Source of the DNA: Acidobacteriota bacterium
GTDB taxonomy: Bacteria; Acidobacteriota; JAAYUB01
Length of the DNA: 64,000 nucleotides
Assembly (NCBI GenBank): GCA_018001935.1
Contig: JAGNHB010000005.1
Span: 59,618-123,617 of the forward strand
Reading direction: 5' to 3'
In this document: positions 1,135 to 37,847 of the stretch, piece after piece
Layout: each line of letters opens with the position of its first letter
Position numbering within the stretch: the first letter of the stretch is position 1
Notes under the pieces: model-generated
Databases searched by the model: none
The model's input: only the letters and a program-made list of their open reading frames with translations
What the model was told of the DNA's origin: nothing
Position numbers and translations under genes: made by a program

Positions 1135-3798
1135 ATGAAAGAAACGCTCCCGAAGTCATACGAGCCCGTTGAAGTGGAAACAAAGTGGTACACCTACTGG
1201 GAGAAGAAGGGCCTGTTCAAGCCCACCCCCGAAGGGAACGGCAAGGACCGTTTCTCCATCGTGATCCCCCCGCCCAACGTCACGGGGACCCTCCACATCG
1301 GGCACGCCTTCTGCTTCACCCTGCACGATGTCATCGTCCGCTGGAAACGGATGCGCGGCTACGACACCCTCTGGCTGCCGGGGACCGACCACGCCGGCAT
1401 CGCCACCCAGAACGTGGTGGAGAAGACCCTCCGCCAGGGCGAGGGCAAGACCCGCCAGGACCTGGGCCGGGAGGCCTTCGAGAAGCGGGTGTGGCAGTGG
1501 AAGGAGGAGTACGGCGGCCGGATCCTGGGGCAGCTCCGGAAGCTGGGGACCTCCTGCGACTGGGAACGCCTGCGCTTCACCCTGGACCACGGCCTCTCCC
1601 GGGCGGTCCGCGAGGTTTTCGTGCGGCTCTACGAGGAAGGCCTGATCTACAAGGGCGAGTACATTGTCAACTGGTGCCCCCGCTGCGGCACGGCCATCTC
1701 CGACCTCGAGACCCAGTACGAGACCCTCGAGGGCAAGCTCTGGTACATCCGCTACCCGGTGAAGGGGCGCCCCGGCGAGTTCGTCACCGTGGCCACCACC
1801 CGGCCCGAGACCATGCTGGGGGACACCGGCGTGGCCATGAACCCGGCCGATGAGCGCTTCGCCCACCTGCGGGGAGCCACGGTGATCCTCCCCCTCCTCG
1901 GCCGGGAGATCCCCCTCGTCGAGGACGAGATGGTGGCCATGGACTTCGGCACGGGCATGGTGAAGGTGACGCCCTCCCACGACCCCAACGACTTCCTCAC
2001 GGGGCAGCGGCACCACCTGCCCTTCGTGCGGGTCATCGACGAGCACGGCCGAATGACGGCCGCCGCCGGGCCCTTTGCCGGCCTGGAGCGCTACGCCTGC
2101 CGGGCGGCGGTCCTGGAGAAACTGGAGGCGGAGGGCCTGCTGGAGAAGGTGGAGAAGCACGTCCACAACGTCGGGCACTGCCAGCGCTGCACGACGGTGG
2201 TGGAACCGCTGGTCTCCAGCCAGTGGTTCGTCAAGGTCAAGCCCCTGGCGGACCGGGCCGTGGAAGCCGTCGAGAAGGGGTTGACCCGGTTCGTTCCCCC
2301 GCGCTACGAGAAGACCTTCTTCACGTGGATGGCGGACATCCACGACTGGTGCATCTCCCGCCAGCTCTGGTGGGGGCACCGCATCCCGGCCTGGTTCTGC
2401 CCCGCCTGCGAGCGGTACACCGTCGCCCGGACCGACCCGGACACGTGCGCACACTGCGGTTCGCCCTCCATCCGCCAGGAGGAGGACGTGCTGGACACCT
2501 GGTTCTCCTCCGCCCTCTGGCCCTTCTCCACGCTGGGCTGGCCGGAGCGGACCCGGGACCTCGAGCGCTTCTACCCCACCGACCTGCTCATCACCGGGTA
2601 CGACATCATCTTCTTCTGGGTCGCCCGGATGATCATGATGGGGATGAAGTTCATGGACGACGCCCCTTTCCGGACCGTCTACATCCACGGGCTGGTGCGG
2701 GACGAGCACAACCAGAAGATGAGCAAGTCGAAGGGGAACGCCCTGGACCCGCTCGAGATCATGTCCAAGTACGGGACCGACGCCGTCCGCTTCACCCTGG
2801 CCATCATGGCCATGCCCGGCAGCGACCTCCCCTTCAGCATGGACCGCATGGTGGGCTACCGGGCCTTCGCCAACAAGATCTGGAACGCCGCGCGTTTCCT
2901 GGTCATGAAGATGCCCGACGACATGGCGCCGGTGGACGAGGCACGGATCCGCGAACTCCTGGCCGGCGGGACGCTGGACGAGACGGACCGGTGGGTCCTC
3001 CACCGGCTGAACGAAACCACCGCGACCATGAACGCCTCGCTGGACGACTTCCTCTGCCACGAGGCGGCGGACGCCATCTACCACTTCTTCTGGCACGAGT
3101 TCTGCGACTGGTACATCGAGTTCGCCAAGCCGCGGCTGGCCGAGGACGCCCCCCGGCGGGCCGAGACCCTCGACCTGCTCCTCTATGTCCTGGACCGGAG
3201 CCTGCGGCTGCTTCACCCCTTCATGCCCTTCATCACCGAGGAGATCTGGCAGAAACTGCCGCGGGAGGGGGAGTCCGTCATGGTCGCCCGCTTCCCGGAG
3301 GCCCTGTCCGGGATGGAGTGCCCCGACGCCGTGCGGCACGTGGAGTTCCTCAAGGAGTTCGTGACGGCCGTCCGGACCATCCGGGCGGAGAACAACATCC
3401 CGCCGGGCAAGCGCCTGCCGCTGGAGTTCGAGGGCGGGGACGAGGCGGCGGCCTCCCTGGCCCTTTTCGACGCGGAGATCCGGCAGCTGGGCGTCCTGGA
3501 CGGCCTCCGCCGGTCGAGCCCCCTCACCGATGCCCCGGGGGCCCTCAAGGGGGCCTGCCCCGGGGTGCGCTTCCAGCTCCTGGCGGAACCGGCGGCCGAC
3601 CCCGGGGCCGAGCGCGACCGGCTCCACCGCGAGATCCGGAAGCTCGAGGACGAACTGCTCAAGATCGAGGTCAAGCTCGCCAACGCCGACTTCCTCGCCA
3701 AGGCCCCGGCGGACGTGGTGGCGAAGAACCGGAAAAAGCAGGCGGAACTCGACGAGAAGGCCGCCACCCTCCGCGCCGCCCTGGCCCTGCTGGGATGA
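1135..3798 (+). CDS. valS: Valine--tRNA ligase
   Basis: The 898-aa ORF spans 1102..3798. It has the class I HIGH-type motif (TLHIGHAF), KMSKS, and a C-terminal coiled-coil typical of ValRS. The ATG at 1135 (MKETLPKSYEP) is the most plausible start; GTG 1102 and ATG 1126 are alternatives. Confidence 0.95.
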   Translation: MKETLPKSYEPVEVETKWYTYWEKKGLFKPTPEGNGKDRFSIVIPPPNVTGTLHIGHAFCFTLHDVIVRWKRMRGYDTLWLPGTDHAGIATQNVVEKTLRQGEGKTRQDLGREAFEKRVWQWKEEYGGRILGQLRKLGTSCDWERLRFTLDHGLSRAVREVFVRLYEEGLIYKGEYIVNWCPRCGTAISDLETQYETLEGKLWYIRYPVKGRPGEFVTVATTRPETMLGDTGVAMNPADERFAHLRGATVILPLLGREIPLVEDEMVAMDFGTGMVKVTPSHDPNDFLTGQRHHLPFVRVIDEHGRMTAAAGPFAGLERYACRAAVLEKLEAEGLLEKVEKHVHNVGHCQRCTTVVEPLVSSQWFVKVKPLADRAVEAVEKGLTRFVPPRYEKTFFTWMADIHDWCISRQLWWGHRIPAWFCPACERYTVARTDPDTCAHCGSPSIRQEEDVLDTWFSSALWPFSTLGWPERTRDLERFYPTDLLITGYDIIFFWVARMIMMGMKFMDDAPFRTVYIHGLVRDEHNQKMSKSKGNALDPLEIMSKYGTDAVRFTLAIMAMPGSDLPFSMDRMVGYRAFANKIWNAARFLVMKMPDDMAPVDEARIRELLAGGTLDETDRWVLHRLNETTATMNASLDDFLCHEAADAIYHFFWHEFCDWYIEFAKPRLAEDAPRRAETLDLLLYVLDRSLRLLHPFMPFITEEIWQKLPREGESVMVARFPEALSGMECPDAVRHVEFLKEFVTAVRTIRAENNIPPGKRLPLEFEGGDEAAASLALFDAEIRQLGVLDGLRRSSPLTDAPGALKGACPGVRFQLLAEPAADPGAERDRLHREIRKLEDELLKIEVKLANADFLAKAPADVVAKNRKKQAELDEKAATLRAALALLG

Positions 3799-3818
3799 CG
3801 GGAGTTCGCCTCTCGCAA

Positions 3819-3984
3819 AGTCGCCAAGGCGCAAAGCCTCGCAAAGCCATGATTTCTGGCGGTTTTTGGACGCAATTTACATTTCTTTGCCCGTCCCGAT
3901 GCGTATCGTAAGGGAAAACAGGCTTCCGCATCCCGCCAGGGATGCGATGTTTGCAGGCTTGGCGCCTTCGCGGCTTTGCGAGAG
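3819..3984. repeat. CGCAAAG-word inverted repeat (long imperfect hairpin, ~36-bp arms, ~100-nt lower-GC loop) just downstream of valS
   Basis: The left arm is CCTCTCGCAAAGTCGCCAAGGCGCAAAGCCTCGCAAAGCC. The right arm is GTTTGCAGGCTTGGCGCCTTCGCGGCTTTGCGAGAGG, its imperfect reverse complement. The same word family occurs at ~37751, ~39945, ~52661 and ~54680. Confidence 0.75.
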
Positions 3985-4024
3985 GCCGGGACCGCCGTCC
4001 AGTCTCCGGGAGGCGCTTTCCTGA

Positions 4025-4435
4025 ATGTGGGGATACACGATTCTTGACTTTCTTTTTCTGGCCTTCCACACGGCGCTGATCGTCTTCAACCTCTTCGGGT
4101 GGGCGTGGAAGCCGACCCGGAAGGCCAACCTCGTCACCCTTCTGCTGACGGGCGCCTCGTGGTTCCTCCTGGGCCTCTGGTACGGGGTGGGGTTCTGCCC
4201 CCTCACCGAGTGGCACTTCCAGGTCCTGGAGAAACTCGGCCACCGGGGGTTGCCCGTCTCCTACGTCAAGTACCTGGCGGACCGGTTGACGGGCCTCGAC
4301 TTCGACCCCGGCCTGGTGGACACCCTCACCGCGGCGTGCTTCGGGGCGGCGCTCGTCGCGTCCGTCGTCGCCAACCGCCGATGGATCCGCGGCGGGTTCC
4401 GGGTCAAAACCACTAATTTCACTAATTCTCACTAA
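4025..4435 (+). CDS. Small integral membrane protein (DUF2784-like); last ~9 codons encoded by repeat DNA
   Basis: The 136-aa ORF has about 4 hydrophobic segments (FLFLAFHTALIVFNLFGW, LVTLLLTGASWFLLGLWYGVGF, CFGAALVASVV). The family assignment is from memory of similar proteins. The tail KTTNFTNSH is coded by CACTAAT repeat words. Confidence 0.65.
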   Translation: MWGYTILDFLFLAFHTALIVFNLFGWAWKPTRKANLVTLLLTGASWFLLGLWYGVGFCPLTEWHFQVLEKLGHRGLPVSYVKYLADRLTGLDFDPGLVDTLTAACFGAALVASVVANRRWIRGGFRVKTTNFTNSH

Positions 4436-4553
4436 ATCAGAGGGAGGGGGAAGCGACGGCCTCGGAAGGATGACGGTTGACGTAATAACCGGTTTCAGGG
4501 CCTGACATCCATGTCCTTATAACCATTAGTGGAGATTAGTGTTCTTAGTGGTT
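4406..4553. repeat. CACTAAT-word inverted repeat
   Basis: The left arm AAAACCACTAATTTCACTAATTCTCACTAA lies at 4406-4435. The right arm ATTAGTGGAGATTAGTGTTCTTAGTGGTT lies at 4525-4553. The arms are three ~9-nt degenerate tandem words. Confidence 0.8.
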
Positions 4554-4620
4554 CAGCCCGGAAGGGCCGACCTCGAGGACGGGTCTGAAATTCCGTTCGC
4601 GTGGTTGGTGTGGTTCGGGG

Positions 4621-5514
4621 TTGATGGCCGGATCGGCTCGGACAACGAGGAGGTGGAGCGTGGTTTCAAGAGACGTTTGTGGTTATGAACCCGATCCCGC
4701 AATGCTGGACGGTTGGCGATTCGTCCGGCGGGTGGTTTCGTGGTCCGTCACCGATTCCACCAACGCCCGGGCGCTGGAGATGGCCCGGCGGAGGGAGGCC
4801 GGGCCCGGGACGCTGCTGCTGGCGGGCGAGCAGACGGCCGGGCGGGGACGGGTGGGTCACGACTGGCACTCGGCGCCCGACACCGGGGTCTACGCCACCC
4901 TGGTCTTGGCCCCCGCCGACTTCCAGCCGAAAGGCGCGTGGGGCGTTTCGGGCGGCGCAAGCCGTGATTTCCAGCCCGGGTGGCTCACCCTGGCGGCGGG
5001 CGTGGCCGTTCACCGGGCGTTGTCGGCACTGATCGGCCCCGACGCCGAGGGGGCCCTCGACCTGAAGTGGCCCAACGACGTGCTCTGGAACGGGCGGAAG
5101 GTCTGCGGCATCCTGGCGGAGTCCGAGGCGGTCGACGGCGGGATCGCCTTCGTGGTGCTGGGGATCGGCATCAATGTCGGCCAGGAGCGTTTTCCCGACG
5201 CGATCCGGGACCGTGCGGTTTCCCTGCGGACGATCACCGGCATCGGCTTTTCCCGGCGCGACGTCCTGGCCCGGGTGCTGGACGCCCTCGATGCCGCCCT
5301 GGCCGCGCTGGCCCAGGGGAGGGCCGGCGGGGTCCTGGCGGAGTGGGAGCGTCGGTCCACCTACGCCCGCGGGCGGCGGGTGGAGGCCCGGACGCCGGGG
5401 GGCGCCCTCCGCGGCGTCACCGACGGCCTCGACCCCGACGGGGCCCTGCGGCTCCGCGCCCCGGACGGGACCGTTCACCTCGTCCACGGCGGGGAGATCG
5501 TCGACTGGGCCTGA
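4621..5514 (+). CDS. birA: Biotin--[acetyl-CoA-carboxylase] ligase (class I, no N-terminal HTH evident)
   Basis: It carries the GRGRVGHDWHS biotin-binding loop motif, then GVYATLVL, KWPNDV and a C-terminal SH3-like tail. The real start is probably the ATG at 4702 (MLDGWRFV...). Confidence 0.85.
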   Translation: MMAGSARTTRRWSVVSRDVCGYEPDPAMLDGWRFVRRVVSWSVTDSTNARALEMARRREAGPGTLLLAGEQTAGRGRVGHDWHSAPDTGVYATLVLAPADFQPKGAWGVSGGASRDFQPGWLTLAAGVAVHRALSALIGPDAEGALDLKWPNDVLWNGRKVCGILAESEAVDGGIAFVVLGIGINVGQERFPDAIRDRAVSLRTITGIGFSRRDVLARVLDALDAALAALAQGRAGGVLAEWERRSTYARGRRVEARTPGGALRGVTDGLDPDGALRLRAPDGTVHLVHGGEIVDWA

Positions 5515-5690
5515 GGCCGCGGGCCCGGAGGATCACCACGAACCACACGGACCACACGAACGGTGAAGGACGAATGGGGCTTCTTGCGGATTCCCTCAGA
5601 AAGCGGCATCGACGCCGGATTCTTCCCCGGTGCCCACGAAGGTGATTCCATAAAAATCCGTGTCAATCCGTGTTCATCCGTGGTTTAATA

Positions 5691-6023
5691 ATGTCGGAGG
5701 AGAGAATGGACGGCCGTGAACTGATCAACCGGGTCGCCGACGTGCTCCGACAGCGCTTCGGGGATGTCATCGGCCCCGTGATCCTCTTTGGCTCGCGAGC
5801 AAGTGCCCGAGCTTTGCCCGACTCGGATTTCGATATCCTCGTCGTGCTCAATTCCCGTTTCGACTGGCGAGTGGAGAATGCCATCCTCGATGCCTGCTTC
5901 GAGCTGGATCTCGAATACGACATCCTGTCCGATGTCAAGGTGATCTCTCGTGAGGACCTGGACACCTGGAAAGGAAAACAGCCGTTCATCCTGAAGGCAT
6001 TCAGTGAGGGTATCTCGGCATGA
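5691..6023 (+). CDS. mntA: Nucleotidyltransferase-domain protein (MNT-type antitoxin of HEPN/MNT module)
   Basis: It has the minimal NTase signature GSRASARALPDSDFDILVV (G-S ... D-x-D). It is small (110 aa from the ATG at 5691). Its stop overlaps the start of the HEPN gene in an ATGA overlap. Confidence 0.8.
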   Translation: MSEERMDGRELINRVADVLRQRFGDVIGPVILFGSRASARALPDSDFDILVVLNSRFDWRVENAILDACFELDLEYDILSDVKVISREDLDTWKGKQPFILKAFSEGISA

Positions 6024-6433
6024 ACCTGACGCCGGATGAGTTGCTTGTTCTGGTCGGCCACAAAATGCAAAGGGCTTCGGAAGCCCTGCGGGACGCTCGA
6101 TTTTTACTGGAGAACAAGCGGAATGCACTGGCCGTCAACCGGGTCTATTACGGGATGTTCTATGCTCTTTCCGCTTTCGCGTTGAAAAAGGGGTTCGCAT
6201 CTTCCAAACATCAACCGCTGATCAGTTGGTTCAATCAGGGTTTTGTCAAAACCGGCAGGGTTGATGGACGATTCGGAAAGGCTCTGCACAGGGCTTACGA
6301 CAAGCGTTCTTTCGCGGACTACGCCGATTATGTGGTCTTCAGCGAAGCGGAAGTCCAGGCGATGATACAGGACCTGGACGAATTCATCACCGAGATGGGC
6401 CGCCTGATCAGTCAGGAGGCTGCGAATCATTAA
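6020..6433 (+). CDS. hepT: HEPN-domain protein (toxin partner of MNT)
   Basis: This 137-aa all-helical protein reads ASEALRDARFLLENKRNALAVNRVYYGMFYA...ADY, consistent with the HEPN fold. It has a 4-nt overlap with the upstream NTase gene. Confidence 0.75.
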   Translation: MNLTPDELLVLVGHKMQRASEALRDARFLLENKRNALAVNRVYYGMFYALSAFALKKGFASSKHQPLISWFNQGFVKTGRVDGRFGKALHRAYDKRSFADYADYVVFSEAEVQAMIQDLDEFITEMGRLISQEAANH

Positions 6434-6524
6434 CCGGCGAGGGTTCATCCGTGGTTAATAACGCGCGTATCCGCGGAACTTTCCTTTCGTGGAGGAAGCG
6501 CGGCCTGGAGGAGGAATAAATCGA

Positions 6525-7451
6525 ATGCTGTCCAGTCTGTTCAACAAGCTGAAGACCGCCGTCAAGTCCACCACGGACAACCTGGCGGGGAAGATCGGGG
6601 ACCTGTTCCTCGGGAAGAAGAAGATCGACGCCGAGGTCCTCGACCAGCTGGAGGCGATCCTGATCGGCGCCGACATCGGGGTGCCGGTCACGATGGAGAT
6701 CCTGGAGCGGGCCCGGAAGGAGATCGGCCGCAACGCCCTCAACGACATGGACCAGCTCGTGGCCGTCATCAAGGACACCCTCCGGGGGATCCTCGAGCGG
6801 CCGGCGGCCGAGGACAAGGCCCTGGCGGCGGCGCCTCCGGGCGTCGTCTTCGTGGTGGGGGTGAACGGCGTCGGCAAGACCACCACCATCGGCAAGCTGG
6901 CCAACCGCTACATCCTGGGCGGCCGGAAAGTCGTGGTCTGCGCCGCGGACACCTTCCGGGCGGCGGCCATCGAGCAGCTCGAGATCTGGGCCCAGCGCTC
7001 CGGCGCCGTCATCGTGCGGAAGTCTCACGGCGCGGACCCGTCCGCCGTGCTTTACGAGTCCGTCGACCGGGCCCGGGCCGACGGGGCCGACCTGGTGATC
7101 GTGGACACCGCCGGCCGGCTTCACACCAAGCACAACCTGATGAAAGAGCTGGAGAAGATGCGCAACATCGCGGGGAAGCGGGTCCCCGGCGCCCCCCACG
7201 AGGTGTACCTGATCATCGACGCCACCACCGGCCAGAACGGCCTCAACCAGGCCCGGGAGTTCCTCCGGACCACGGGCGTGACCGGCCTCGTCGTCACCAA
7301 GCTGGACGGGACGGCCAAGGGCGGCGTCGTGGTGGCCATCTCCCGGGAACTCAACCTCCCCATCCGCTACGTCGGCATCGGGGAGAAGATGGACGACCTC
7401 ATCGAGTTCAACGTGGACGACTACGTCGAATCCATCTTCAGCCGGAACTGA
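6525..7451 (+). CDS. ftsY: Signal recognition particle receptor FtsY
   Basis: It has the SRP GTPase motifs GVNGVGKTTTIGKLA, DTAGR and TKLDGTAKGG. The ATG at 6525 (MLSSLFNKLK) is in frame within ORF 6489..7451. Confidence 0.95.
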   Translation: MLSSLFNKLKTAVKSTTDNLAGKIGDLFLGKKKIDAEVLDQLEAILIGADIGVPVTMEILERARKEIGRNALNDMDQLVAVIKDTLRGILERPAAEDKALAAAPPGVVFVVGVNGVGKTTTIGKLANRYILGGRKVVVCAADTFRAAAIEQLEIWAQRSGAVIVRKSHGADPSAVLYESVDRARADGADLVIVDTAGRLHTKHNLMKELEKMRNIAGKRVPGAPHEVYLIIDATTGQNGLNQAREFLRTTGVTGLVVTKLDGTAKGGVVVAISRELNLPIRYVGIGEKMDDLIEFNVDDYVESIFSRN

Positions 7452-9279: not shown

Positions 9280-9375
9280 GATCTGCCAGAAACGAATACG
9301 GACCGTTTTCAGCCCGCGGGCGCTTGCCGAGGGAATTTCTTACCACAAAGAACGCAAGGAACACAAAGAATAATG

Positions 9376-10251
9376 CTATCGGGCCTTCTCCCCCTTTGGG
9401 GTGCTGTCTGCGCGCTTCGGGGCGGCGTAGTGCCCGGCGGTGCCGTGCCACCAGATCCGGAACAGCGCCAGGAACATCTTCAGCGGGTCCCGGACCATGC
9501 GGACCTTCGAGACCTTGTACGAGTGGGTTTCGGAAACGTGCGCCGCGATCTCGCCGACCGAGTATCCCAGTTTCCGCGCGATGTAGATCAGTTCCACGTC
9601 GAAGGTGAAGTCGAAGGTCCGCTGCCGCCGGAAGATCTCCCGGGCGGCGGCCAGGGTGAACCCCTTGAGGCCGGCCTGGGTGTCCCGGTAAGGCAGGCGG
9701 AGCAGGAGCCGGACCAGCCGGTTGAAGACTTCACCGGTGAAGCGCCGGACCAGGCGGATGTTCACCTGGCGCTCGCGGAGGAGGCGCCGGCTCCCGATGA
9801 CGACGTCGTGGCGGGTGAGGGCGTCCGCCAACCGGTGCAGATGGTCGAAGGAGTAGGCCAGGTCCCCGTCGGTGAAGAGGACGTACGACCCCGTGGCCCG
9901 GTCGATGCCCGCGTGGATGGCCAAGCCCTTGCCCCCGTTCCGCGGGAGGAGGCAGCACTCGAGCCGGGGCTGGCCGAGGTCCGCGATCGCTTTCTCCAGC
10001 AGCGCCGGGGTCCCGTCGTCGGAGCCGTCGTCCACGAAGACGGCACGGTAGCGGGGGAACTCCCGGACGAAGCCGGCGACGGAGCGGACGATGCCCGGCA
10101 GGATGTCGGCTTCGTTGTAGACGGGGAGGATGAGCGTGATGTCCGCGGGAGCGTGCGTACCCTTCCCGTCGGCGGAGGGGCGGGCATCGGCCTTCGGCCC
10201 TTCGGCGACGGGTACAGGCGTAGTGATGGCGGCGTCCGGGTTGCGGAACAA
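9376..10251 (-). CDS. Glycosyltransferase family 2 (dolichyl/polyprenyl-phosphate glycosyltransferase-like)
   Basis: It has the GT-A motifs LILPVYNEADIL, FVDDGSDDGT and LFTDGDL. The ORF is open to 10491, but that extension is coded by REP-like hairpins. I favour the TTG at 10251, preceded by GGGAGGG. Confidence 0.75.
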   Translation of the reverse strand: MFRNPDAAITTPVPVAEGPKADARPSADGKGTHAPADITLILPVYNEADILPGIVRSVAGFVREFPRYRAVFVDDGSDDGTPALLEKAIADLGQPRLECCLLPRNGGKGLAIHAGIDRATGSYVLFTDGDLAYSFDHLHRLADALTRHDVVIGSRRLLRERQVNIRLVRRFTGEVFNRLVRLLLRLPYRDTQAGLKGFTLAAAREIFRRQRTFDFTFDVELIYIARKLGYSVGEIAAHVSETHSYKVSKVRMVRDPLKMFLALFRIWWHGTAGHYAAPKRADSTPKGEKAR

Positions 10252-10310
10252 GGCGGCCCTCCCTGAAAACGGGACACCATACCCGCTTTCCGGCCCAAAA
10301 TCAAGTCTCC

Positions 10311-10474
10311 CGTACGCCGGCCGAGCCGAGGCCGGCGTTGGGGCGGTACGCCGGCCGAGCCGAGGCCGGCGTTGGGGTTGCGGAGAAAACAAGGGGCAAG
10401 GGCGCGATCCCGGCCGCCCCTCCCGAGGGAACCGGCATCGGCGCTGCCGCGCGCCTCGGCTCGGCGCGCGTACC
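10311..10474. repeat. REP-like palindromic hairpin units, GTACGC-stem-GAGCCGA-stem (3 copies: 2 tandem direct, 1 inverted)
   Basis: CGTACGCCGGCCGAGCCGAGGCCGGCGTTGGGG occurs twice in tandem at 10311-10377. An inverted copy, CGCGCGCCTCGGCTCGGCGCGCGTAC, lies at ~10447-10474. The same family occurs at 56203-56313. Confidence 0.8.
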
Positions 10475-10495
10475 TTGGGGCGCGCGCGCACGGGG

Positions 10496-15359: not shown

Positions 15360-15779
15360 CTACCGGGGGGTGTTCATCAGGGAGTCCGCCCGGAGGTGCC
15401 CCTGAAGGACCGTCACGACGCCGTAGGCCGCGAGGGCCAACCCGACCACGACCACCAGCACACCTGCCGCCTTCTTGGCGCCCAGGGGGATCTTCAGTTC
15501 CCAGATGATGGACCGGACCCCGTAAAGGCCGTGGAACAGCCCGAAAATCGCCAGCAGGACGTAGACCGCCGTCATGAAGATCGACTGCATGCGGGGGAGC
15601 ACGCTCTCCTGGAAGTTGAGCGCGCCGGAGGGCCCCGCGGCGGTCCAGGCGCTCTTCGGGATGAAGCCGAAGAAGGCCAGGACGGTGTCGAAATGCATGA
15701 TCAGGGTGTGCAGACCCAGCAGGAGGATGAGGATCATCCCCGCCATCATGTGCCAGAACCAGAGTCTAGATTCTTTCAT
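15360..15779 (-). CDS. sdhD: Succinate dehydrogenase membrane anchor subunit (SdhD-like)
   Basis: The 139-aa protein has 3-4 TM helices and an LFHGLYGVRSIIWE motif resembling the anchor-subunit His/Gly/Arg motif. It sits within the sdh cluster. Confidence 0.65.
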   Translation of the reverse strand: MKESRLWFWHMMAGMILILLLGLHTLIMHFDTVLAFFGFIPKSAWTAAGPSGALNFQESVLPRMQSIFMTAVYVLLAIFGLFHGLYGVRSIIWELKIPLGAKKAAGVLVVVVGLALAAYGVVTVLQGHLRADSLMNTPR

Positions 15780-20325: not shown

Positions 20326-20619
20326 GGTGCCTCCTCGAGCATGAAAGATCGGCGCAGGGTCGCCTTTCATGAATGTCATACCTTATCCTCGCGCCGAATG
20401 GTAGGAAAAAATCCGGAGCAGGAATCCCCCGGTAAAGCTGCCGGGTGCTTTCCCCGGAAGAGGGATCGATCGCGATGCGCCTTCCCGGGAAGCGGTCTGC
20501 TTGAAAAACGAAAAGCCCGCATCGAGAACCAGGCGCTGGAGGGCTTCGGCGGGGTATTTTTCGATGTTTTTGAAAAAAATCCCGAAAGCGGTGCTGGCTT
20601 TGCGTTGACAGAGTGAGCG

Positions 20620-21372
20620 GGAAGGGACGAAAGGACCAAAAGGACCAAAGGGACCCAAAGGACGGCAGGGATGGTAAGCTTGGGCTCTCAGCGGCCCATT
20701 GTGAGGGAGGGCCCGGCACGGCCCGCCGCGAGGAAGTGCCCGGCACGGCCCGCCGCGAGGAAGTGCCCGGCACGGCCCGCCGCGAGGAAGTGCCCGGCGC
20801 CGCCCGCCGAGTGGAAGTGCCCGGCGTGGCCCGCCGAGGGGGAGGGGCCCGGTGTGGCCTGCCGAGGTGGAGCGCCCGTCACGGCTCACCGTGCGGAAGT
20901 GCCCGGCGAAAAACGGCTGTTCGGCCCGTGCCCCGGCGCCGCCGACCGTTACACCCGGGAGTGTTTGCAACCCTCGACGATCGGGCGCCCCGGGAGCTGC
21001 GCGGGCACAAGGCCGGCTTTCCTCGGAGTTGCCGGCAAACCCAGACGCTCCCCGGGCGCCTCCCGGGCGCCCCCGATGCCCCACCCAGGCCGTTCGGTGG
21101 CACGTTCGGTTCTCCAGCCGCGTCGGGCGTGCCCCGGCCATGACGGGCGCCCCCCGGCCTCATCGGGCGTGCCCCGGCCGCGTCGGGCGTGCCCCGGCCG
21201 CGTCGGGCGTGCCCCGGCCGCGTCGGGCGTGCCCCGGCCGCGTCGGGCGTGCCCCGGCCGCGTCGGGCGTGCCCCGGCCGCGTCGGGTGTCCCCCGGCCG
21301 CGTCGGGTGTCCCTTGCGGTTCACGGCTGTCCTTTATGTCCTTTTGGTCGTTTTGGTCCTTTCGTCCTTTCC
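20620..21372. repeat. GGACCAAA-armed cassette 1: inverted terminal arms enclosing a 27-mer array and a 20-mer array
   Basis: The left arm is GGAAGGGACGAAAGGACCAAAAGGACCAAAGGGACCCAAAGGACGG (20620-20665). The right arm is CTGTCCTTTATGTCCTTTTGGTCGTTTTGGTCCTTTCGTCCTTTCC (21327-21372). A 27-mer array (GCCCGGCACGGCCCGCCGCGAGGAAGT) of about 6 units lies at 20711-20872. A 20-mer array (CGTCGGGCGTGCCCCGGCCG) of about 10 units, 5 of them perfect, lies at 21121-21315. Confidence 0.85.
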
Positions 21373-21398: not shown

Positions 21399-21963
21399 AT
21401 GCCCGACCGCTTCATCCCCCCGCATGGCGGTTACCGAAACCTCCTCTCCTACCAGAAGGCGGAAATCGTCTACGACGCCACGGTTTACTTCTGCGGCCGA
21501 TTTTACGCACGCGGCGACCGCACCATCGACCAGATGGTGCAGGCCGCCCGCTCGGGCAAGCAGAACATCGCCGAAGCGAGCCTGGCGTCGGGGACCTCCA
21601 AGGAGATGGAAATCAAGCTGACCAACGTGGCCCGCGCCAGCCTGGAGGAACTCCTGGCTGACTACCGGGACTTCTTGCGGACGCGCCAATCAAGCGAGTG
21701 GGCCCTGGACCACCCCGGCACGCTGCGCCTGCGGGAACTGAACCGTCAGCCCGGCGTTTCCTACGAAGCGTTTCGCCCCGGCATCGAGCACCGCGACCCG
21801 GCGGTCTGCGCCAACGTGGTCATCGGGCTGATCAAGCTGAGCTGCTACCTCCTCGACCGCCAGTTGAAGCGCCTGGAACAGGATTTTTTGAAGGAGGGGG
21901 GGGCTGCGGGAACGCATGACGCGGGTGAGGGTGGAGGTGAGGAAACGGGAGAGCGGGAGGTAG
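21399..21963 (+). CDS. Four-helix-bundle protein (23S rRNA intervening-sequence protein family, with suffix domain); apparent frameshift at a G8 tract near the 3' end
   Basis: It begins MPDRFIPPHGGYRNLLSYQKAEIVYDATVYFCGRF...SGKQNIAEASLASG..., which matches the family pattern as I recall it. As written the frame reads through to 23519, across trpA on the opposite strand. Removing one G from the G8 run at 21896-21903 gives GGLRERMTRVRVEVRKRESGR and a stop at 21961-21963. Confidence 0.65.
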
Positions 21964-21968
21964 AGAAG

Positions 21969-22333
21969 AGAAGGGACGGAAGGACCAAAACGACCAAAGG
22001 GACCAAAAGGACGGCAAAGAAGCCACAGCCCTCAACGGCCCCCTCCCCGCCGCGCCTGCCGCCCCCCGCCGCGCTGCCGGGCCTCGCCGCGCCTGCCGCC
22101 CCCCGCCGCGCTGCCGCGCCCTGTCGCCCCCTGCCGCCCCACTTGCCGCGCCTGCCGGGCCCCGCCGCGCCTGCCGGGCCCCGCCGCGCTGCCGCCCCCG
22201 CCGCGCCTGCCGCCCCCGCCGCGCCTGCCGCCCCCCGCCGCGCCTGCCGCGCCCTGCAGCCCTCTGCCGCCTCTTTGCGGCCCCCTGCCGTCCCTTATGT
22301 CCTTTGGGTCGTTTTGGTCCTTTTGTCCTTTCT
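21969..22333. repeat. GGACCAAA-armed cassette 2 enclosing a ~16-17 nt GC-rich tandem array
   Basis: The left arm is AGAAGGGACGGAAGGACCAAAACGACCAAAGGGACCAAAAGGACGG (21969-22014). The right arm is CCGTCCCTTATGTCCTTTGGGTCGTTTTGGTCCTTTTGTCCTTTCT (22288-22333). The interior is (CCGCGCCTGCCGCCCC)-like units. Confidence 0.85.
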
Positions 22334-22367
22334 CATACGATGTTCCTGCCTTGCGACCGCTTGGCCT

Positions 22368-23174
22368 TTACCCTCTCGTTGCCGCCTTCATGGCCCTTAC
22401 GAAGGCCGCCAGTTCGCTGCGCAGGGCGTCCGGATCGCCGGCGTGGCGCTCGACGAGGGCCACCATGGCCGAGCCGCTGATGGCGCCCGCGGCGCCGGCG
22501 CGAAGGGCGTCGCGGACGTGCTCCGGCTTCGAGATCCCGAAGCCCAGCAGCGCGGGGGGCGCGCCGGCGTCCCGCAGCCGGGCGACCAGGGCGCGGTGGT
22601 CGGTGCGGGCGTGCTCGTCGGCGCCGGTGACGCCGCCGCGGGTCACGACGTAGGTGTAGCCCTCGGCGAGGCGGGCCACCGCGGCAAGGTCCTCGTCCCG
22701 GCTGTTGGGGGCGGCGATCAGGACCGGCGCGATGCCGTGCGCCCGGGCGCCGGCCGCGTAAGGCCCCGCCTCCAGTGTCGGCGCGTCCGCCACCAGGACC
22801 GAGTCGATCCCGACGTCGGCGCACCGCCGGTAGAAGGCGTCCCGTCCCCGGGCCTCCACGAGGTTGGCGTAGACCAGAAGCCCGACCGGAATCTCGCGGT
22901 TCCGCTCCCGGAACCGGCGGACCAGGTCGAGGGCGCCGCCCGGTGTCATGCCGGCCTCCAGGGCCCGGATGTCGGCTTTCTGGATGGTGGGGCCGTCCGC
23001 CACCGGGTCGGAGAAGGGGATGCCCAGCTCCAGGGCGTCGGCGCCGGCGTCCGCGAGGGTGTGGAGGATGGTCAGGCTCCGTTCGGGGTCCGGGTCGCCC
23101 AGGACCGTGAAGGGGACGAAGGCCCCCTCGCCGGAAGCGGCCAGGCGGGCAAACAGGGTTTCGTATCGGGTCAT
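22368..23174 (-). CDS. trpA: Tryptophan synthase alpha chain
   Basis: MTRYETLFARLAASGEGAFVPFTVLGDPD is a typical TrpA N-terminus, and GIPFSDPVADGPTIQ is present. The ORF-track extension to 23231 is coded by hexamer repeats. Confidence 0.95.
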   Translation of the reverse strand: MTRYETLFARLAASGEGAFVPFTVLGDPDPERSLTILHTLADAGADALELGIPFSDPVADGPTIQKADIRALEAGMTPGGALDLVRRFRERNREIPVGLLVYANLVEARGRDAFYRRCADVGIDSVLVADAPTLEAGPYAAGARAHGIAPVLIAAPNSRDEDLAAVARLAEGYTYVVTRGGVTGADEHARTDHRALVARLRDAGAPPALLGFGISKPEHVRDALRAGAAGAISGSAMVALVERHAGDPDALRSELAAFVRAMKAATRG

Positions 23175-23210
23175 GCTTCCTTCCTTTTCAATCCAGGCCC
23201 CCAACCATCG

Positions 23211-23686
23211 GGGTCGGTATCGGTATCGCAATCGGAATCGGTATGGGTATCGGTATCGGTATCGGAATCGGTATGGGTATCGGTATCGGTATCGGAATCG
23301 GTATCGCTATCGGTATCGCAATCGCAATCGGCATCGCAATCGCAATCGCTCTCGCCCTCGCCGTCGATCTCGCAATCGCACCGCACCCCAGGCCCTTCTG
23401 CCCGCTGTCCTCGGGGGCAAGCCCGCGGCACCGCCCGACCACGGCTTCACACGGGCGCCCCGGGCGCCCCCGTTGCGCCAGGGCCGGTCGCAGCCGCAGG
23501 CGGTTCCCCCGGGCCGTGACCTGGCGCAGGGGCGAGGGAACGGGCGATGCCGGTGGGGATTGCGACTTCCTTGCCGGCTGCGGGAGCGAGAGCGAGGGCG
23601 AGGGCGGTACCGATTGCGATACCGATTGCGATACCGATACCGATACCGATACCGATAGCGATAGCGATACCGATGCCGATGGGAGA
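23211..23686. repeat. Hexamer-word inverted repeat filling the trpB-trpA spacer
   Basis: The left arm is a (GGTATC/GCAATC/GGAATC)n array at ~23211-23380. The right arm is the complementary (GATACC/GATTGC/GATAGC)n array at ~23583-23686. A ~200-nt unique GC-rich core lies between them. Confidence 0.85.
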
Positions 23687-23696
23687 TCTCCGAACA

Positions 23697-24920
23697 TCAG
23701 TGCTCCTTAAGGGTTTGGGGGGGAGGAGGGGGATCGGACATCAGGGCGCGCATCCGGGGCTGGGAGCGGACCTGGTCGAGGTCCTTGTCCCCCCGGCCGC
23801 TGAGGTTGACCAGCAGGAGCGTTCCCGGGGCCGCCGATTCCGTCATCTTCAGCGCGTGGGCCAGGGCGTGGGCCGACTCCAGGGCCGGGATGATCCCCTC
23901 GGCCGCCGAGAGGGCGGCGAAGGCTTCCAGGGCCTCGTCGTCCGTGACGCCCACGTACTCGGCCCGGCCCGTGGCCTTCAGCCAGGCGTGCTCCGGCCCG
24001 ACGCCGGGGTAGTCGAGCCCGGCGGCGACGGAGTGGCTCTCCAGAACCTGGCCGTCGTCGTCCTGCAGCAGGTAGCTGAAAGCGCCGTGCAGGACCCCCG
24101 GCCGTCCCGCCTGGAGGCTCATGCAGTGCTTCCCGGTGTGCAGGCCGCGCCCGGCGGCTTCGACGCCCACCAGCCGGACGTCCGTGTCGTCCACGAAGTC
24201 GGCGAAGATCCCCATGGCGTTGGAACCGCCGCCGACGCAGGCCACGACCGCGTCGGGGAGCCGCCCCTCCGCCGCGAGCACCTGGGCCCTCGCCTCGCGG
24301 CCGATCACCCGCTGGAACTCGCGCACCATGAGGGGGTAGGGGTGCGGCCCCGCCACGGTGCCCAGGACGTAGTGGGTGTCCCCGAAGGAGGCGGCCCAGT
24401 CGCGCAGGGCCTCGTTGACGGCGTCCTTGAGGGTGCGGGAGCCGCTCTCCACGCTCACCACCTCCGCCCCCATGAGCCGCATGCGGAAGACGTTGGGCTG
24501 CTGGCGCTCCACGTCCCGCGCGCCCATGTAGACCCGCGTCTTCAGCCCGAAGAGGGCCCCCGCCATGGCGGTGGCGACGCCGTGCTGCCCCGCGCCGGTC
24601 TCGGCGATGAGGCGGGTCTTGCCGGACCGCCGGGCCAGCAGTGCCTGCGCGAGGACCTGGTTGGTCTTGTGGGCGCCGCCGTGCACCAGGTCCTCCCGCT
24701 TGAGCAGGAGGCGGGCGTTCGTGCCCCGTCCCAGGTTGCGGCAGGCGTAAAGGGGCGTGGGGCGGCCGGCGTAATGGGTCAGGAGATCGCCCAGTTCCGC
24801 CTGGAAGGCCGGGTCGGGGCGGGCCGCGAGGAAGTTGGCTTCCAGTTCCTCCAGGGCGGGGAGGAGGATCTGCGGGACGAAGGCCCCGCCGAAGTCGCCG
24901 AATCTGCCGGATTGTTGCAT
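23697..24920 (-). CDS. trpB: Tryptophan synthase beta chain
   Basis: It has [15 protein letters not shown] (the PLP Lys region) and GGGSNAMG. The length is 407 aa. Confidence 0.95.
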
Positions 24921-25107
24921 GGTGGTGTTACCTCGGTGATGATGCTGAAGGAGACAGGAGACAGAAGACAGAAGTCAGGAACTGAAAGCCGGGGAGGGAG
25001 GGGAGGCGAGAACGCCGCAAGGGCGGAGGGAGGGAAAACGCAAAGGGTGCGAAGGGTGCGAAAAGTGCGAAAAGTGCGAAAGGCCAAGGGGAAAGAGGAG
25101 AGTGATG

Positions 25108-25252
25108 GGAATAATGGAAGAAATGGAAGAAATGGAAGAGATGGAAGAGATGGAAGAAATGGGAGAGATGGGAGAAATGGGAGAAATGGGAGAAATGGGA
25201 GAAATGGGAGAAATGGGAGAAATGGGAGAAATGGGAGAAATGGGAGAAATGG
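25108..25252. repeat. 9-mer tandem array (ATGGAAGAA/ATGGGAGAA), about 16 units, last ~10 perfect
   Basis: The array was read directly, including GGGAGAAAT repeated without mismatch from ~25160 to 25252. Flanking shorter arrays are GTGCGAARR 9-mers at ~25047-25083 and GACAGRA 7-mers at ~24950-24990. Confidence 0.9.
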
Positions 25253-25295
25253 GATCGCGTTGACCATGGTTGACATCTCTTAAACAGTTTTCTCT

Positions 25296-25390
25296 GCCAC
25301 AGAGGCACGGAGGCACGGAGAAACGCACTTTGTATTTCATAGACAAAACATGCTTTATGGTTCTTCTCCGTGCCTCTGCGCCTCTGTGAG
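25296..25390. repeat. CACRGAGG-word inverted repeat with AT-rich loop
   Basis: The left arm is CTGCCACAGAGGCACGGAGGCACGGAGAAACGC. The right arm is TTCTTCTCCGTGCCTCTGCGCCTCTGTGAG. The loop is ACTTTGTATTTCATAGACAAAACATGCTTTATGG. Confidence 0.8.
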
Positions 25391-25435
25391 ATTAAAATCC
25401 GGACTCTTTACGCCCGCATCACAGTTATTTGCTCC

Positions 25436-25528
25436 TGAAACCCGACACCCGAAACCCGACACCCGAAACCTGAAACCCGAAACCTGAAACCTGAAACCTG
25501 GAACCCGACACCCGACACCTGACACCTA
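25436..25528. repeat. 7-mer microsatellite (CCGAAAC/CCGACAC/CTGAAAC)n abutting the trpCF stop codon
   Basis: About 13 consecutive 7-nt units were read directly. Confidence 0.85.
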
Positions 25529-26935
25529 TCCTCTCAATTCCTCGAACAGCCGCAGCAGCAGCCCCTCGTCCTTGACCCCCGGGGCCGACTCCACGCCGGA
25601 GTTGACGTCGAGGGCGAAAGCGCCCAGAGTGGCGGCCTCGCGTGCGTTCGCGGGGCGGATGCCGCCGGCGACCACCAGCCGGTCCCGTTCGGGGTGATCC
25701 CGCAGGACCGACCAGTCGAAGGTCTCGCCGGTGCCGCCGCGACGGCCCGACCGTTGGGTGTCCAGCAGCAGCCGGTCCGCGCCGGACGCCGCCAGCGCCG
25801 GGATCATGATGCCCCGCGCCTCCCGGGCCGCCGGCGCCGGGACCGGGCCTGCCACGCGGTGCGCCTTCCAGACCTCCGCGGTGGGCGGGAGCGCGGCCTT
25901 CAGGGTGCGAACGTACCCGGCATCCTCCTCGCCGTGGAGCTGGACGACCGCCAGGTCCAGGTCAACCACCGCCCAGCGGACCCGGTCGATCGGGGCGTTC
26001 ACGAAAACGCCCGCCCACCGGAGCGGGGCGGCGTCCCGGACCCGCCGGGCCTGCTCCGGCGTCACGCACCGGGGCGACTCGGCCGCGAAGATCAGCCCGC
26101 CGTAGACGGCGCCCGCCCGCCAGGCGGCGGCGGCGTCCGCCGGGGACGTAAGGCCGCAGACCTTCACTCGCCCGAAGACCAGTTCGCGGGCGGCCCGCCC
26201 GGGGTCGGGCGTTTCCATGAGGGAGGTGCCCACCAGGAACCCCCCGGCGAGGCGCCGAAGCCGTGCCACGTCCGCCCGTCCGCGGATGCCCGACTCGCAG
26301 ACGAGGGCCACCCCCGGCGGGACGAGGGGCGCCAGCCGTTCCGTCACGGCGAGGTCGGTGCGCAGGGTCCTGAAATCGCGGTTGTTGATCCCCACGACGC
26401 CGGCGCCCAGCGCCAGGGCGCGCCTCAGCTCGGCCTCGTCGTGCACCTCCACGAGGGTGTCCTGGGCGAGGGACCGGGCCGCCTCCAGGCAGGCCGTCGC
26501 CGTGGGGTTGTCCAGGACGGAGAGCATGAGGAGGACGGCGTCGGCGCCGTGCAGGCGGGCCTCGTACACCTGGTAGGGGTCCACCACGAAGTCCTTGCAG
26601 AGGACGGGGAGCGAAACCCGCTCCCGGACCCGGCGGACGTCCGCCAGGCTCCCCTGGAAGAAGGGTTCGTCGGCCAGGACGGAAATGGCGTCGGCGACGG
26701 GGTCGAAAGCCTCCGCCAGCCGGACGGGGTCGAAGTCGGCCCGGATCAAACCTCGGGAAGGGGACGCCTTCTTGCACTCGAGGATGAAGGCGGTCCGGCC
26801 GGGGCGGAAGGCGGCGCGCAGGCTTCGGTCCGACGGCCGAAGGTCCGCGGAGAACGCCGCCAGCGGCCGTCGCGCCATCCGCTCCCGCACATCCTGCCGC
26901 TTCCTCTCCAGGATCTCCTCAAGCACCATGATCAT
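25526..26935 (-). CDS. trpCF: Bifunctional indole-3-glycerol-phosphate synthase / phosphoribosylanthranilate isomerase
   Basis: The N-terminal half has ILECKKASPSRGLI (the TrpC motif). The C-terminal half has VKVCGLTS...GGLIF (TrpF). The length is 469 aa. Confidence 0.9.
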   Translation of the reverse strand: MIMVLEEILERKRQDVRERMARRPLAAFSADLRPSDRSLRAAFRPGRTAFILECKKASPSRGLIRADFDPVRLAEAFDPVADAISVLADEPFFQGSLADVRRVRERVSLPVLCKDFVVDPYQVYEARLHGADAVLLMLSVLDNPTATACLEAARSLAQDTLVEVHDEAELRRALALGAGVVGINNRDFRTLRTDLAVTERLAPLVPPGVALVCESGIRGRADVARLRRLAGGFLVGTSLMETPDPGRAARELVFGRVKVCGLTSPADAAAAWRAGAVYGGLIFAAESPRCVTPEQARRVRDAAPLRWAGVFVNAPIDRVRWAVVDLDLAVVQLHGEEDAGYVRTLKAALPPTAEVWKAHRVAGPVPAPAAREARGIMIPALAASGADRLLLDTQRSGRRGGTGETFDWSVLRDHPERDRLVVAGGIRPANAREAATLGAFALDVNSGVESAPGVKDEGLLLRLFEELRG

Positions 26936-27160
26936 TGGACTCCAACGATGATCTCATTCCGCAAGAAGCACAGAACACGCAGAACAACGCAGCATAAAGG
27001 GCGTGCTGGTATTTCTCGAGCCCGAATACCCGGCCGTTGCCAACGCAGGCGCATTGGCCCAAGGAGAAGGACGCCTTCTTGATGCCAAGAGAACCCGCGG
27101 GAGCCTTCCTTGCGTCCCCGCGTCGCTGTGTCACGTTAAATCTCCCGCTGTCGCCGGGTT

Positions 27161-28817: not shown

Positions 28818-28848
28818 GTCGATCACCTCGGAAAAACCATCGGGAATT

Positions 28849-29075: not shown

Positions 29076-29095
29076 ATTGTCGTGTCCCTGAATTC

Positions 29096-32780: not shown

Positions 32781-32818
32781 CCTGCCCTCCACTCAGATTC
32801 AAACCGGGAACCGAACAG

Positions 32819-32862
32819 GTCGGACAAGTCAGACCAGTCGGACAAGTCAGACCAGTCGGATG
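32819..32862. repeat. 9-nt periodic tandem repeat (GTCGGACAA GTCAGACCA)x2.3 in the aroAK-aroC spacer
   Basis: The sequence GTCGGACAAGTCAGACCAGTCGGACAAGTCAGACCAGTCGGA was read directly. Confidence 0.85.
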
Positions 32863-37827: not shown

Positions 37828-37847
37828 AACCGCAAAGCGCCTACAGC

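Follow-up and report, generated by a model that had tools for sequence, protein, structure and literature searches.

We analysed a 64,000-nt stretch of an Acidobacteriota genome (GenBank assembly GCA_018001935.1, contig JAGNHB010000005.1, positions 59,618 to 123,617 of the forward strand; hereafter the window), in which the DNA between genes carries many families of short tandem words, often set out as two inverted arms that can fold into a long interrupted hairpin. This word grammar is real, significant and widespread; it is built on units in which some 7 bp of helix are joined to 0-3 unpaired nucleotides, and not on a phasing of B-DNA. In one family, built on GGAC words (GGACCAAA), the words are tightly linked to a gene for a four-helix-bundle (4HB) protein with a suffix domain across 80 unrelated loci. 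The explanation that we consider best, and to which we give a little less than even credence, is that the repeats of the window are modular hairpin elements of the type known from 4HB genes and 23S rRNA intervening sequences, mostly gene-less here.

Arrays were detected without reference to any motif, as at least three copies of a 7-mer with at most one mismatch, spaced 7-12 nt apart. The window holds 38 such arrays, compared with 4.6, 5.7 and 5.8 in Markov simulations of order 1, 3 and 5, respectively (maximum 12), and 32 of the 38 are intergenic, although non-coding DNA makes up 14% of the window (binomial p = 5e-22). An excess over chance and an enrichment between genes, for both of which a preliminary description of this DNA had asked for a test, are thus borne out, and at every site listed there the stated words are present. 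The repeats are not an assembly artefact, since two independent assemblies are 100% identical over 3817-6971. They have the features of long simple sequence repeats, or of short tandemly repeated repetitive (STRR) sequences: tandem units of 5-11 nt, above chance and chiefly non-coding.

Among the 32 intergenic arrays the period is 9 nt in 16, 8 nt in six, 10 nt in four and 7 nt in two. The preliminary description had noted that the periods cluster at 9 nt and that this is close to one helical turn; 9 nt is indeed the commonest period, but the helical-turn argument is not supported, since the plan is often realised with a period of 7 or 8 nt, both being used by this architecture outside the window. 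An inverted partner lies within 800 nt for 18 of the 32 arrays, and three have a separate direct partner. The families had also been described as unrelated in sequence. Different words do occur on one plan, but CACGAAC, CACGAAATA, CACGGAT and CACTAAT are all variants of a single word type, CAC-N-R-A-Y. The CGCAAAG arm is a dispersed 40-nt repeat with internal periodicity.

The CACTAAT element (4406-4553; arms 4410-4437 and 4525-4551, three 7-nt words each) illustrates the plan. Its left arm reads CACTAAT-tt-CACTAAT-tct-CACTAAA (4411-4436) and overlaps the stop codon of a DUF2784 gene, while its right arm, ATTAGTG-gag-ATTAGTG-tt-CTTAGTG (4525-4551), lies about 88 nt beyond; the spacers between words are 2-3 nt long and non-complementary. 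The whole is predicted to fold into one long interrupted hairpin, with an RNA free energy of -58.8 kcal/mol (z -4.2; none of 200 shuffled sequences folded equally well) and a z of -3.3 when folded as DNA; the folded form may be RNA or single-stranded DNA. Hairpin z-scores of -4.2 to -10.5 were obtained for six elements (4400-4560, 25290-25402, 28880-29022, 37750-37828, 39944-40048 and 54678-54782), the five other than the CACTAAT element beating their shuffles with z -5.8 to -10.5.

The persistence of these elements was followed in two related species (L082 and L084), whose BirA proteins are 75-79% and coding DNA 78-94% identical to those of the window. The CGCAAAG hairpin (3809-3984), the CACTAAT hairpin and a CACGAAC array occupy the same intergenic sites in both, which answers the call of the preliminary description for a comparison of related genomes. 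In the CACTAAT copies the arms share 79-94% identity, whereas the identity of the centres is that of the background. Orthologous arms overall are 72-94% identical between species, whereas the centres, at 31-50%, resemble the shuffled background (46%) and differ 2-3-fold in length; the arms therefore persist while the loops turn over completely. Within the arms of the CGCAAAG hairpin there is a compensatory change, CTCTCGC/GCGAGAG in the window corresponding to CTCACGC/GCGTGAG in L084. The array at 4596-4618, an orphan in the window made of GTTCGCGTGG/GTTGGTGTGG words (the reverse complement of CACGAAC-type words), is kept in each of the three species, but only L084 has a left partner for it. 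We had considered strong purifying selection on the arms and dropped it after measuring four-fold-site identity, which is 0.57-0.73 in the flanking DUF2784 and BirA genes and 0.83 in the gene for valyl-tRNA synthetase (ValRS). The identity of the arms equals or exceeds that of the four-fold sites in the flanking DUF2784 and BirA genes; the arms are about as conserved as coding DNA, and the centres are at background.

The GGAC family has a gene as its partner. The open reading frame (ORF) at 21399-21965 on the plus strand is located between two GGACCAAA hairpins. Hairpin 1 (20617-21372, period 9) has its left arm at 20617-20670 and its right arm at 21320-21372, the latter ending 28 nt ahead of the 4HB start codon; the arms of hairpin 2 (21966-22334) lie at 21966-22019 and 22283-22334 and are 84% complementary. 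The encoded protein matches NCBIfam TIGR04258 (3.7e-13, 49.2 bits, cut-off 40) and, barely over the cut-off of 24, TIGR02436 (2.7e-5, 24.3 bits); PF05635 stays below its cut-off in this copy and is precomputed for many homologues. While a phmmer search against PDB sequences gave no match, a fold search with the AlphaFold model (pLDDT 85) returned 2GSC (target TM 0.79) and 2RLD (S23p family) as best PDB matches, and also chain 8UB7_B, the Avd protein of a diversity-generating retroelement (DGR). The product of 21399-21965 is a 4HB protein with a suffix domain, S23p/Avd-like. It has more than 8000 homologues, and those listed, which include proteins of Desulfuromonas and Hydrogenedentes, are 73-79% identical to it, whereas the housekeeping proteins of the window reach only 40-61% identity to anything outside their own lineage; this difference fits a horizontal spread of the 4HB gene.

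Two further features of this locus were seen. A run of eight G at 21896-21903 within the 4HB gene is followed in the annotated frame by GGAAGTHDAGEG and in the next frame by LRERMTRVR, which matches the family consensus GGLRERMTRAR; the copy in the window therefore has a +1 frameshift (or a sequencing error) near its 3' end. The loops of the GGAC hairpins, including a third one without a gene (59719-60134; arms 59719-59788 and 60065-60134), are swollen by differing GC-rich minisatellites, namely a 27-mer in 7.6 copies, a 20-mer in 9.6, a 19-mer in 12 (the loop of hairpin 2) and a 17-mer in 10 (the loop of hairpin 3), with minisatellite coordinates 20703-20907, 21117-21307, 22045-22271 and 59868-60034. 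In the other GGAC hairpins that we folded the loops are a few tens of nucleotides at most.

The association between gene and words was quantified in 80 metagenome loci carrying a 4HB-suffix gene, with control windows taken from the same loci; GC content ranges from 0.42 to 0.66 across the 21 loci inspected, and the flanking sequences differ. At least three [G/T]GAC words phased at 9-10 nt occur within 250 nt of the gene at 58 of the 80 loci, as opposed to 1 of 593 control windows, and the motif-blind detector finds 2.0 arrays per kb in the flanks of 4HB-suffix genes compared with 0.18 per kb elsewhere. Arrays of the GAC type account for 65 of the 80 flank arrays and period 9 for 63 of the 80, and the spacing between words is 9 nt in 183 of 206 steps. 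The unit can be written (A/C)-A-(A/G)-GGAC-N-N, where the GGAC core served as search anchor and the information content of the two spacer positions is 0.04 and 0.11 bits. Structure prediction gives series of 7-bp helices (AAGGGAC with GTCCCTT) parted by 2x2 internal loops, and between the end of a hairpin and the 4HB start codon there are 0-39 nt.

Within these hairpins we compared the pairing of arms with that of shuffled partners, using the GAC/GTC pairing for nothing but the register. At the variable word positions pairing is above the shuffled level (92% against 71% at offset -2, 85% against 73% at offset -1), A-T to T-A swaps included, while the spacer positions pair near chance (48% and 44%, against 37% and 39%). 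Because the word positions covary and the spacers do not, the GGAC stem is under selection word by word.

Classical 4HB genes (TIGR02436), taken from cyanobacteria, Bacteroidota, Gemmatimonadota and Nitrospinota as well as Azospirillum, present a similar picture. We inspected 13 of them, one from a metagenome-assembled genome (MAG) of Nitrospinota and twelve from plasmids of Nostoc, Trichormus, Aulosira, Picosynechococcus, Geminocystis, Pseudanabaena, Leptolyngbya, Riemerella, Gemmatirosa and Azospirillum. In the Nitrospinota MAG, TTGCAAG heptamer arms stand on both sides of the gene; on the twelve plasmids tandem words flank it, inverted in ten. Under a strict detector an array lies within 150 nt of the gene in 12 of the 13 cases, against 7 of 293 control windows. 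The Azospirillum plasmid copy (L176) fails this detector, its words being seen by eye; it has word-built arms around the ORF within 23S rRNA-like flanks, and is apparently a 23S rRNA intervening sequence. The words vary by gene (TCAGGAG, GTAGGGA, AAGGGAA, CTAAAAG, GGAGATA, AAGGTTY and others), with TCAGGAG common to three 4HB proteins that are 76-83% identical. On three cyanobacterial plasmids (L171, L174 and L170) the gene with its word arms fills a tight slot, separating cmr2 from cmr3, cas6 from cas4, and the genes for the two ribonucleotide reductase subunits from each other, with only 35-100 nt of spacer on each side. Classical 4HB genes with their arms thus look like small cassettes that insert between operon genes.

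In the explanation that we favour, each arm would consist of 3-5 short words, every one of which would pair on folding with its inverted copy into some 7 bp of helix, and the spacers of 0-3 nt would be free to vary, leaving small internal loops; families would share this plan and differ in their words. The full form would carry or abut a 4HB gene (here 21399-21965, with GGAC words and a 9-nt period), and most copies in the window would be gene-less derivatives or orphan arms that behave like repetitive extragenic palindromic (REP) sequences or MITEs (miniature inverted-repeat transposable elements). By analogy with the Avd pentamer, a ring-shaped 4HB oligomer may bind the folded stem or the words, probably as RNA. 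A hairpin ahead of its own 4HB gene could then serve as a translational operator, and gene-less copies could be extra binding sites, or else relics whose stems are processed or stabilise the mRNA, comparable to the RNase III excision of 23S intervening sequences. On this proposal we infer that the gene-less families here have cognate 4HB paralogues. A broader version, which we offer as speculative and rather doubtful, would hold that free-standing 4HB proteins (S23p/Avd-like rings) read phased short words on hairpin arms in a sequence-specific way, with an own word for each subfamily, and that the gene and its arms together make up a small cassette which spreads horizontally and has left many gene-less derivatives.

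Parts of this scheme have precedents. The 23S intervening sequences of Leptospira, Coxiella, Xanthomonas and Brucella resemble the window elements in that terminal inverted repeats form a long stem enclosing or adjoining a 4HB gene. That of Coxiella combines an S23p ORF, a 28-bp stem and, in its 5' part, tandem GACAGAT heptamers, at the first of which RNase III cuts and whose number differs between strains (PMC4990558). The window elements differ in being intergenic or intercistronic instead of located in rRNA, in mostly lacking an ORF, in their mainly 8-10 nt period and in their unpaired spacers; Rfam finds no rRNA in the window, and the word elements sit between protein-coding genes, not in helix 25 or 45 of 23S rRNA. 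Intergenic tandem words, often in convergent inverted pairs, are also known as the GGGAATC arrays of Xanthomonas, the STRR heptamers of cyanobacteria and the long simple repeats. Xanthomonas has about 186 GGGAATC arrays, with 70 inverted (convergent) pairs in X. campestris, and related species keep them at the same positions and of the same type but with varying lengths (PMC4692102); a review covers TAACTGA arrays and long simple sequence repeats of 5-11 nt from scattered phyla (PMC4679880). These two reports deal with a single word in each genome, which they discuss in terms of G-quadruplexes, slippage or translation, drawing no link to 4HB genes, whereas the window has numerous word families side by side, one of them tied to a 4HB gene. 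Our literature search found no paper linking 4HB genes in general with tandem-word arms. The preliminary remark that no described system is known to explain all families is thus true in part only, as there are piecemeal precedents in the stem heptamers of the Coxiella intervening sequence, the inverted GGGAATC arrays of Xanthomonas and the long simple sequence repeats.

Two ring-forming proteins offer comparisons. Avd belongs to the same fold family as the 4HB protein of the window, by NCBIfam and fold match, and forms an S23p-like pentamer that binds RNA stem-loops in the DGR ribonucleoprotein (bioRxiv 10.1101/2023.10.23.563531). This pentameric barrel commonly binds stem-loops of 9 bp with flipped-out bases; the Avd stem-loop is single and not a series of word helices, and the window contains no reverse transcriptase, template repeat or variable repeat. 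TRAP, a functional analogy only, is a ring-shaped homo-oligomer that reads (G/U)AG repeats with non-conserved spacers of variable length. It differs in its unrelated fold, in its 3-nt words in single-stranded RNA and in having no inverted partner arm.

Several observations weigh against our explanation. About 44% of the intergenic arrays are orphan or one-sided (at 971, 9346, 24949, 25046, 25108 with 17 copies, 25437, 26961, 32819, 37466, 46499, 52707, 54531 and 54617), and neither these orphan arrays nor the element at 5534-5683 (z -0.7) make a significant hairpin with a long stem. The inverted-repeat construction claimed in the preliminary description is thus a common, word-independent architecture that reaches well beyond this genome, but it does not hold for every array. 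Around two of the classical 4HB genes (L174 and L177) the flanks are direct, not inverted. A comparison of G-U with A-C pairs in 17 hairpins gives 29 for the sense and 46 for the antisense strand, with no strand asymmetry, and so yields no evidence for a function of the sense-strand RNA. The linkage between gene and words could, moreover, partly reflect the common descent of one mobile cassette.

A further difficulty is that no partner was found for most families. No 4HB gene accompanies the CACNRAY, CGCMAAG, CACRGAGG or other non-GGAC families within the 64-kb window. Relatives of the CACRGAGG hairpin (25296-25392) that are nearly identical in their three words occur in MAGs of Nitrospirota and Nitrospinota and at 87 IMG/VR loci (GC 0.41-0.71; 46% with an inverted partner); none of them has a 4HB gene or any recurrent neighbour gene, the largest cluster covering 7 of the 87 loci. 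Throughout 4.77 Mb of viral loci selected for arrays, only one 4HB gene lies near CACRGAGG, CGCAAAG, CACGAA or CACTAAT arrays. This gene (L473, classical) is found 100-350 nt downstream of CACGAAT, CACGAAC, ATTAGTG and GTCCGTG arrays, a word set that matches that of the window; it is a single case, suggestive of a 4HB link for these words. The earlier suggestion of paralogous binding proteins with different words, which named 4HB genes among those to be correlated with the families, consequently gains support from the GGAC family (80 loci) and from at least 12 of the 13 classical 4HB genes with their own words, but this support is incomplete, as no partner protein was found for most families of the window. 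Scrambled control words, too, form tandem triples 53-87 times in IMG/VR, 3-13% of them in inverted pairs. Because scrambled words also recur, recurrence of a word across phyla is weak evidence, and we dropped it as a strong argument for conserved readers, keeping two exceptions, CACRGAGG, with its three words in a fixed order and 46% of cases inverted, and CGCAAAG at period 8. It seems that nearly any word can be used in this architecture.

Such observations raise the alternative that these are generic long simple sequence repeats, generated by slippage as words of 7-10 nt in non-coding DNA, which tolerates non-triplet units, and served by no dedicated protein. Inverted pairs would then persist as useful or harmless hairpins (mRNA 3' stabilisers, terminators or insulators, as with REPs), and 4HB cassettes would merely carry them or land in them. 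We regard this as a possibility to be taken seriously, if not a probable one. The many orphan arrays and the tandem, sometimes inverted, triples of scrambled words would be expected under it, as would the large copy-number expansions of the window (17 x ATGGGAGAA, 12 x GAAACCC) and the minisatellites of 17-27 nt in the same spacers. It would also agree with the strain-variable heptamer number in Coxiella (PMC4990558), with the occurrence of 5-11 nt long simple repeats in several phyla (PMC4679880) and with the placement of elements between cistrons of the aro/trp operon, as is found for REPs. On the other side, the information sits in the words and almost none in the spacers, arms covary at word positions only, one word with its 9-nt period accompanies one gene through very different genomes, and orthologous arms are kept while centres turn over. 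Correction of quasipalindromes by template switching would render the spacers complementary too, which they are not. The preliminary description had listed a slippage-prone replication context among its candidate mechanisms; slippage clearly alters copy number, but alone it is insufficient, because it leaves unexplained that the arms covary while the spacers stay free.

The short distance between GGAC hairpins and the 4HB start codon (0-39 nt) would also suit double-stranded DNA operators or centromere-like arrays, in which the words are sites of cooperative DNA-binding proteins of the ribbon-helix-helix omega/ParR type and the inverted blocks bracket promoters. Omega heptads and parC iterons are short words of this kind, in direct and inverted blocks with a heptad or 11-bp period, and the 7-10 bp period of direct and inverted blocks described here resembles them, as do the heptads AATCAC(T/G/A) at the locus L032. 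We nevertheless judge this unlikely. Many elements follow a stop codon or separate cistrons within a single operon, a scan of 3750-5750 for sigma-70-like promoters and intrinsic terminators found none, and no ribbon-helix-helix or partition gene is present among the window ORFs scanned. Operators of double-stranded DNA do not require covariation that preserves pairing between arms, and the sole characterised relative of the 4HB protein, Avd, binds RNA.

An affinity to REP sequences and bacterial interspersed mosaic elements (BIMEs) had been proposed at the outset, and it holds in so far as the repeats are intergenic, intercistronic, dispersed and hairpin-forming. Like REP/BIME and REPIN-RAYT systems they are abundant and come in genome-specific families, and a single-copy gene is flanked by the same repeats (the REP-associated tyrosine transposase, RAYT, there and the 4HB gene here). 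The hallmarks of REPs are absent, however: REP stems are not made of tandem words, and the arms of the window start with CCTCTCGCAAAG, AACCACGAA, CCACTAAT or AAGGGAC, with no GTAG/CGTC head. More generally, the repeats could be mobile DNA of the REP/REPIN or MITE type, mobilised by a transposase of the RAYT, the IS200/IS605-like or another type whose gene lies elsewhere, with the words as subterminal transposase-binding repeats. The dispersed families with conserved 40-nt arms and leader motifs, the nested arrangements and a toxin-antitoxin cassette beside one array, flanked by a direct repeat of the last word of the array, are in line with this. We consider it improbable, since the window ORFs scanned against Pfam hold no transposase or RAYT (Y1) domain, the arms lack GTAG/CGTC heads, no target-site duplication surrounds the copies at 39944 and 54678, and the loops differ wholly between copies and species, unlike those of recently transposed MITEs.

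If the partnership between 4HB proteins and words is true, it would explain at once the ORF-bearing 23S intervening sequences, the cyanobacterial STRR heptamers, the inverted heptamer arrays that Xanthomonas carries, the fact that simple repeats of 7 nt are in excess in bacteria, and the presence of so many repeat families in this genome. To our knowledge, no mechanism has been given for tandem repeats of 5-11 nt, STRR heptamers or ORF-bearing 23S intervening sequences in the roughly thirty years over which they have been catalogued. Thousands of proteins belong to the 4HB/S23p family, which has solved structures and no known function outside DGRs. The linkage of gene to word (58 of 80 loci against 1 of 593 windows) and the plan of the stem turn this into a testable problem of protein-nucleic-acid recognition, with a simple genomic rule that predicts candidate binding sites. 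For annotation, the elements account for intergenic DNA that is seemingly full of unrelated repeats, and they flag operon-internal hairpins that may shape mRNA processing.

The remaining elements of the window are as follows. An orphan array of the right-arm CGCAAAG type (CTTTGCG words) lies at 968-1007. The CGCAAAG/CGCCAAG hairpin compared above has 40-nt arms of four words each (3809-3848 and 3945-3984) around a 96-nt centre. At 5534-5683, three CACGAAC words (5537-5561) face three ATCCGTG words (5655-5683), so that the arms of this weak hairpin have different sub-words. Orphan arrays on the plus strand comprise three CRCARRGAA words at 9344-9372 and an array of the CRCARRGAA type at 46499-46525. 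A CGCAAAG x3 array, a lone CTCTCGCAAAGG word and a right-arm-type CGTGTATTC array share 52700-52810.

Elements also sit between the cistrons of the long aro/trp operon (minus strand, 22368-37250). Between trpB and trpA, inverted ATCGGT/ATCGCA hexamer arrays (23205-23682) have 153-nt arms that are 71% complementary. Between trpCF and trpB there is a run of arrays (24949-25527) made of AGGAGAC x4.6, GTGCGAAAA x4, ATGGGAGAA x17, the CACRGAGG hairpin (z -7.1) and GAAACCC x12. An orphan array of three CRCAGAACA words (26961-26992, plus strand) separates trpD and trpCF, and five 9-nt units of GTCGGACAA/GTCAGACCA (32815-32860, plus strand) form another between aroA-aroK and aroC. Between trpE and trpG a nested hairpin (28845-29088) has outer arms of CACGAAC/GTTCGTG and inner arms of CACGAAATA/TATTTCGTG, the inner part reaching z -6.3. 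Similar layers, each with its own word, occur at other loci (L032 2420-2510 and 3780-4030; L242 4966-5109; L011 2040-2350), with TTCACRG, GTGATTN and AATCCAAAG in L032 and AATTTTGA inside CACAGAGG in L242; the nesting in L032 and L242 resembles that of 28845-29088, where CACGAAC stands outside CACGAAATA. Layered nesting suggests repeated insertion into loops.

Composite arrangements are found further along. At 37454-37828, left-type arrays of CACGAAATA and CACGAAC (37454-37520) precede a CTTGGCG/CGCCAAG hairpin (37750-37828, z -7.6). The element at 39880-40048 consists of a CACGGAT array (39889-39915) and a CGCAAAG hairpin (39944-40048, z -5.8), and that at 54528-54782 of a CGATAC hexamer array, three CACGGAT words (54617-54645) and a CGCAAAG hairpin (54678-54782, z -10.5). 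The CACGGAT arrays and CGCAAAG hairpins of both are part of a composite repeat of about 350 nt (39870-40230 and 54600-54964, 83-89% identical), in which the CACGGAT array and the CGCAAAG hairpin are followed by some 200 nt of further conserved sequence ending in CTCAAATCTTGCTCATTTTRCCAAAGATCTTACTTCG. The second copy is directly upstream of gcvT, a place where Rfam detects neither a glycine riboswitch nor any other family.

The window is ordinary chromosome of high GC content (about 68%) without a close sequenced relative: the best matches of its ValRS are Acidobacteriota MAGs at 55-61% identity, and near relatives are short Logan contigs only. Besides the aro/trp operon its genes include valS, the DUF2784 gene, birA, ftsY, sdhABCD, murJ and gcvT/gcvP. 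Rfam covariance models gave no match at gathering score in the window and one irrelevant match at E<1.

Directly after the ATCCGTG array, a nucleotidyltransferase/HEPN toxin-antitoxin pair (5706-6023 and 6020-6433) lies in a segment of lower GC (5670-6465), bracketed at about 5670 and at 6443 by a direct repeat of the array's last word and tail, TTCATCCGTGGTT(T)AATAA. In the related species L082 other sequence follows birA at this place, and the pair looks like a cassette inserted at the array. A second segment, 40000-44000, drops in GC to 0.61-0.62 from about 0.68-0.73 around it and holds a BNR/sortilin-repeat protein with a dockerin domain (40674-42833); it is possibly acquired DNA. On the minus strand at 15380-15455, ARAGORN calls a tRNA-Arg(ACG) inside an ORF (15360-15779) with a weak Sdh_cyt match, while Rfam reports none at this place, even with E values up to 1 allowed; of the tRNA and the ORF, one has probably been called in error. 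Finally, a perfect tandem duplication (10312-10377; 34-nt unit, 1.9 copies, 100% identical) lies within a predicted family-2 glycosyltransferase ORF (9376-10491, minus strand), and as 34 is not a multiple of three, the start or the frame of this ORF is in doubt.

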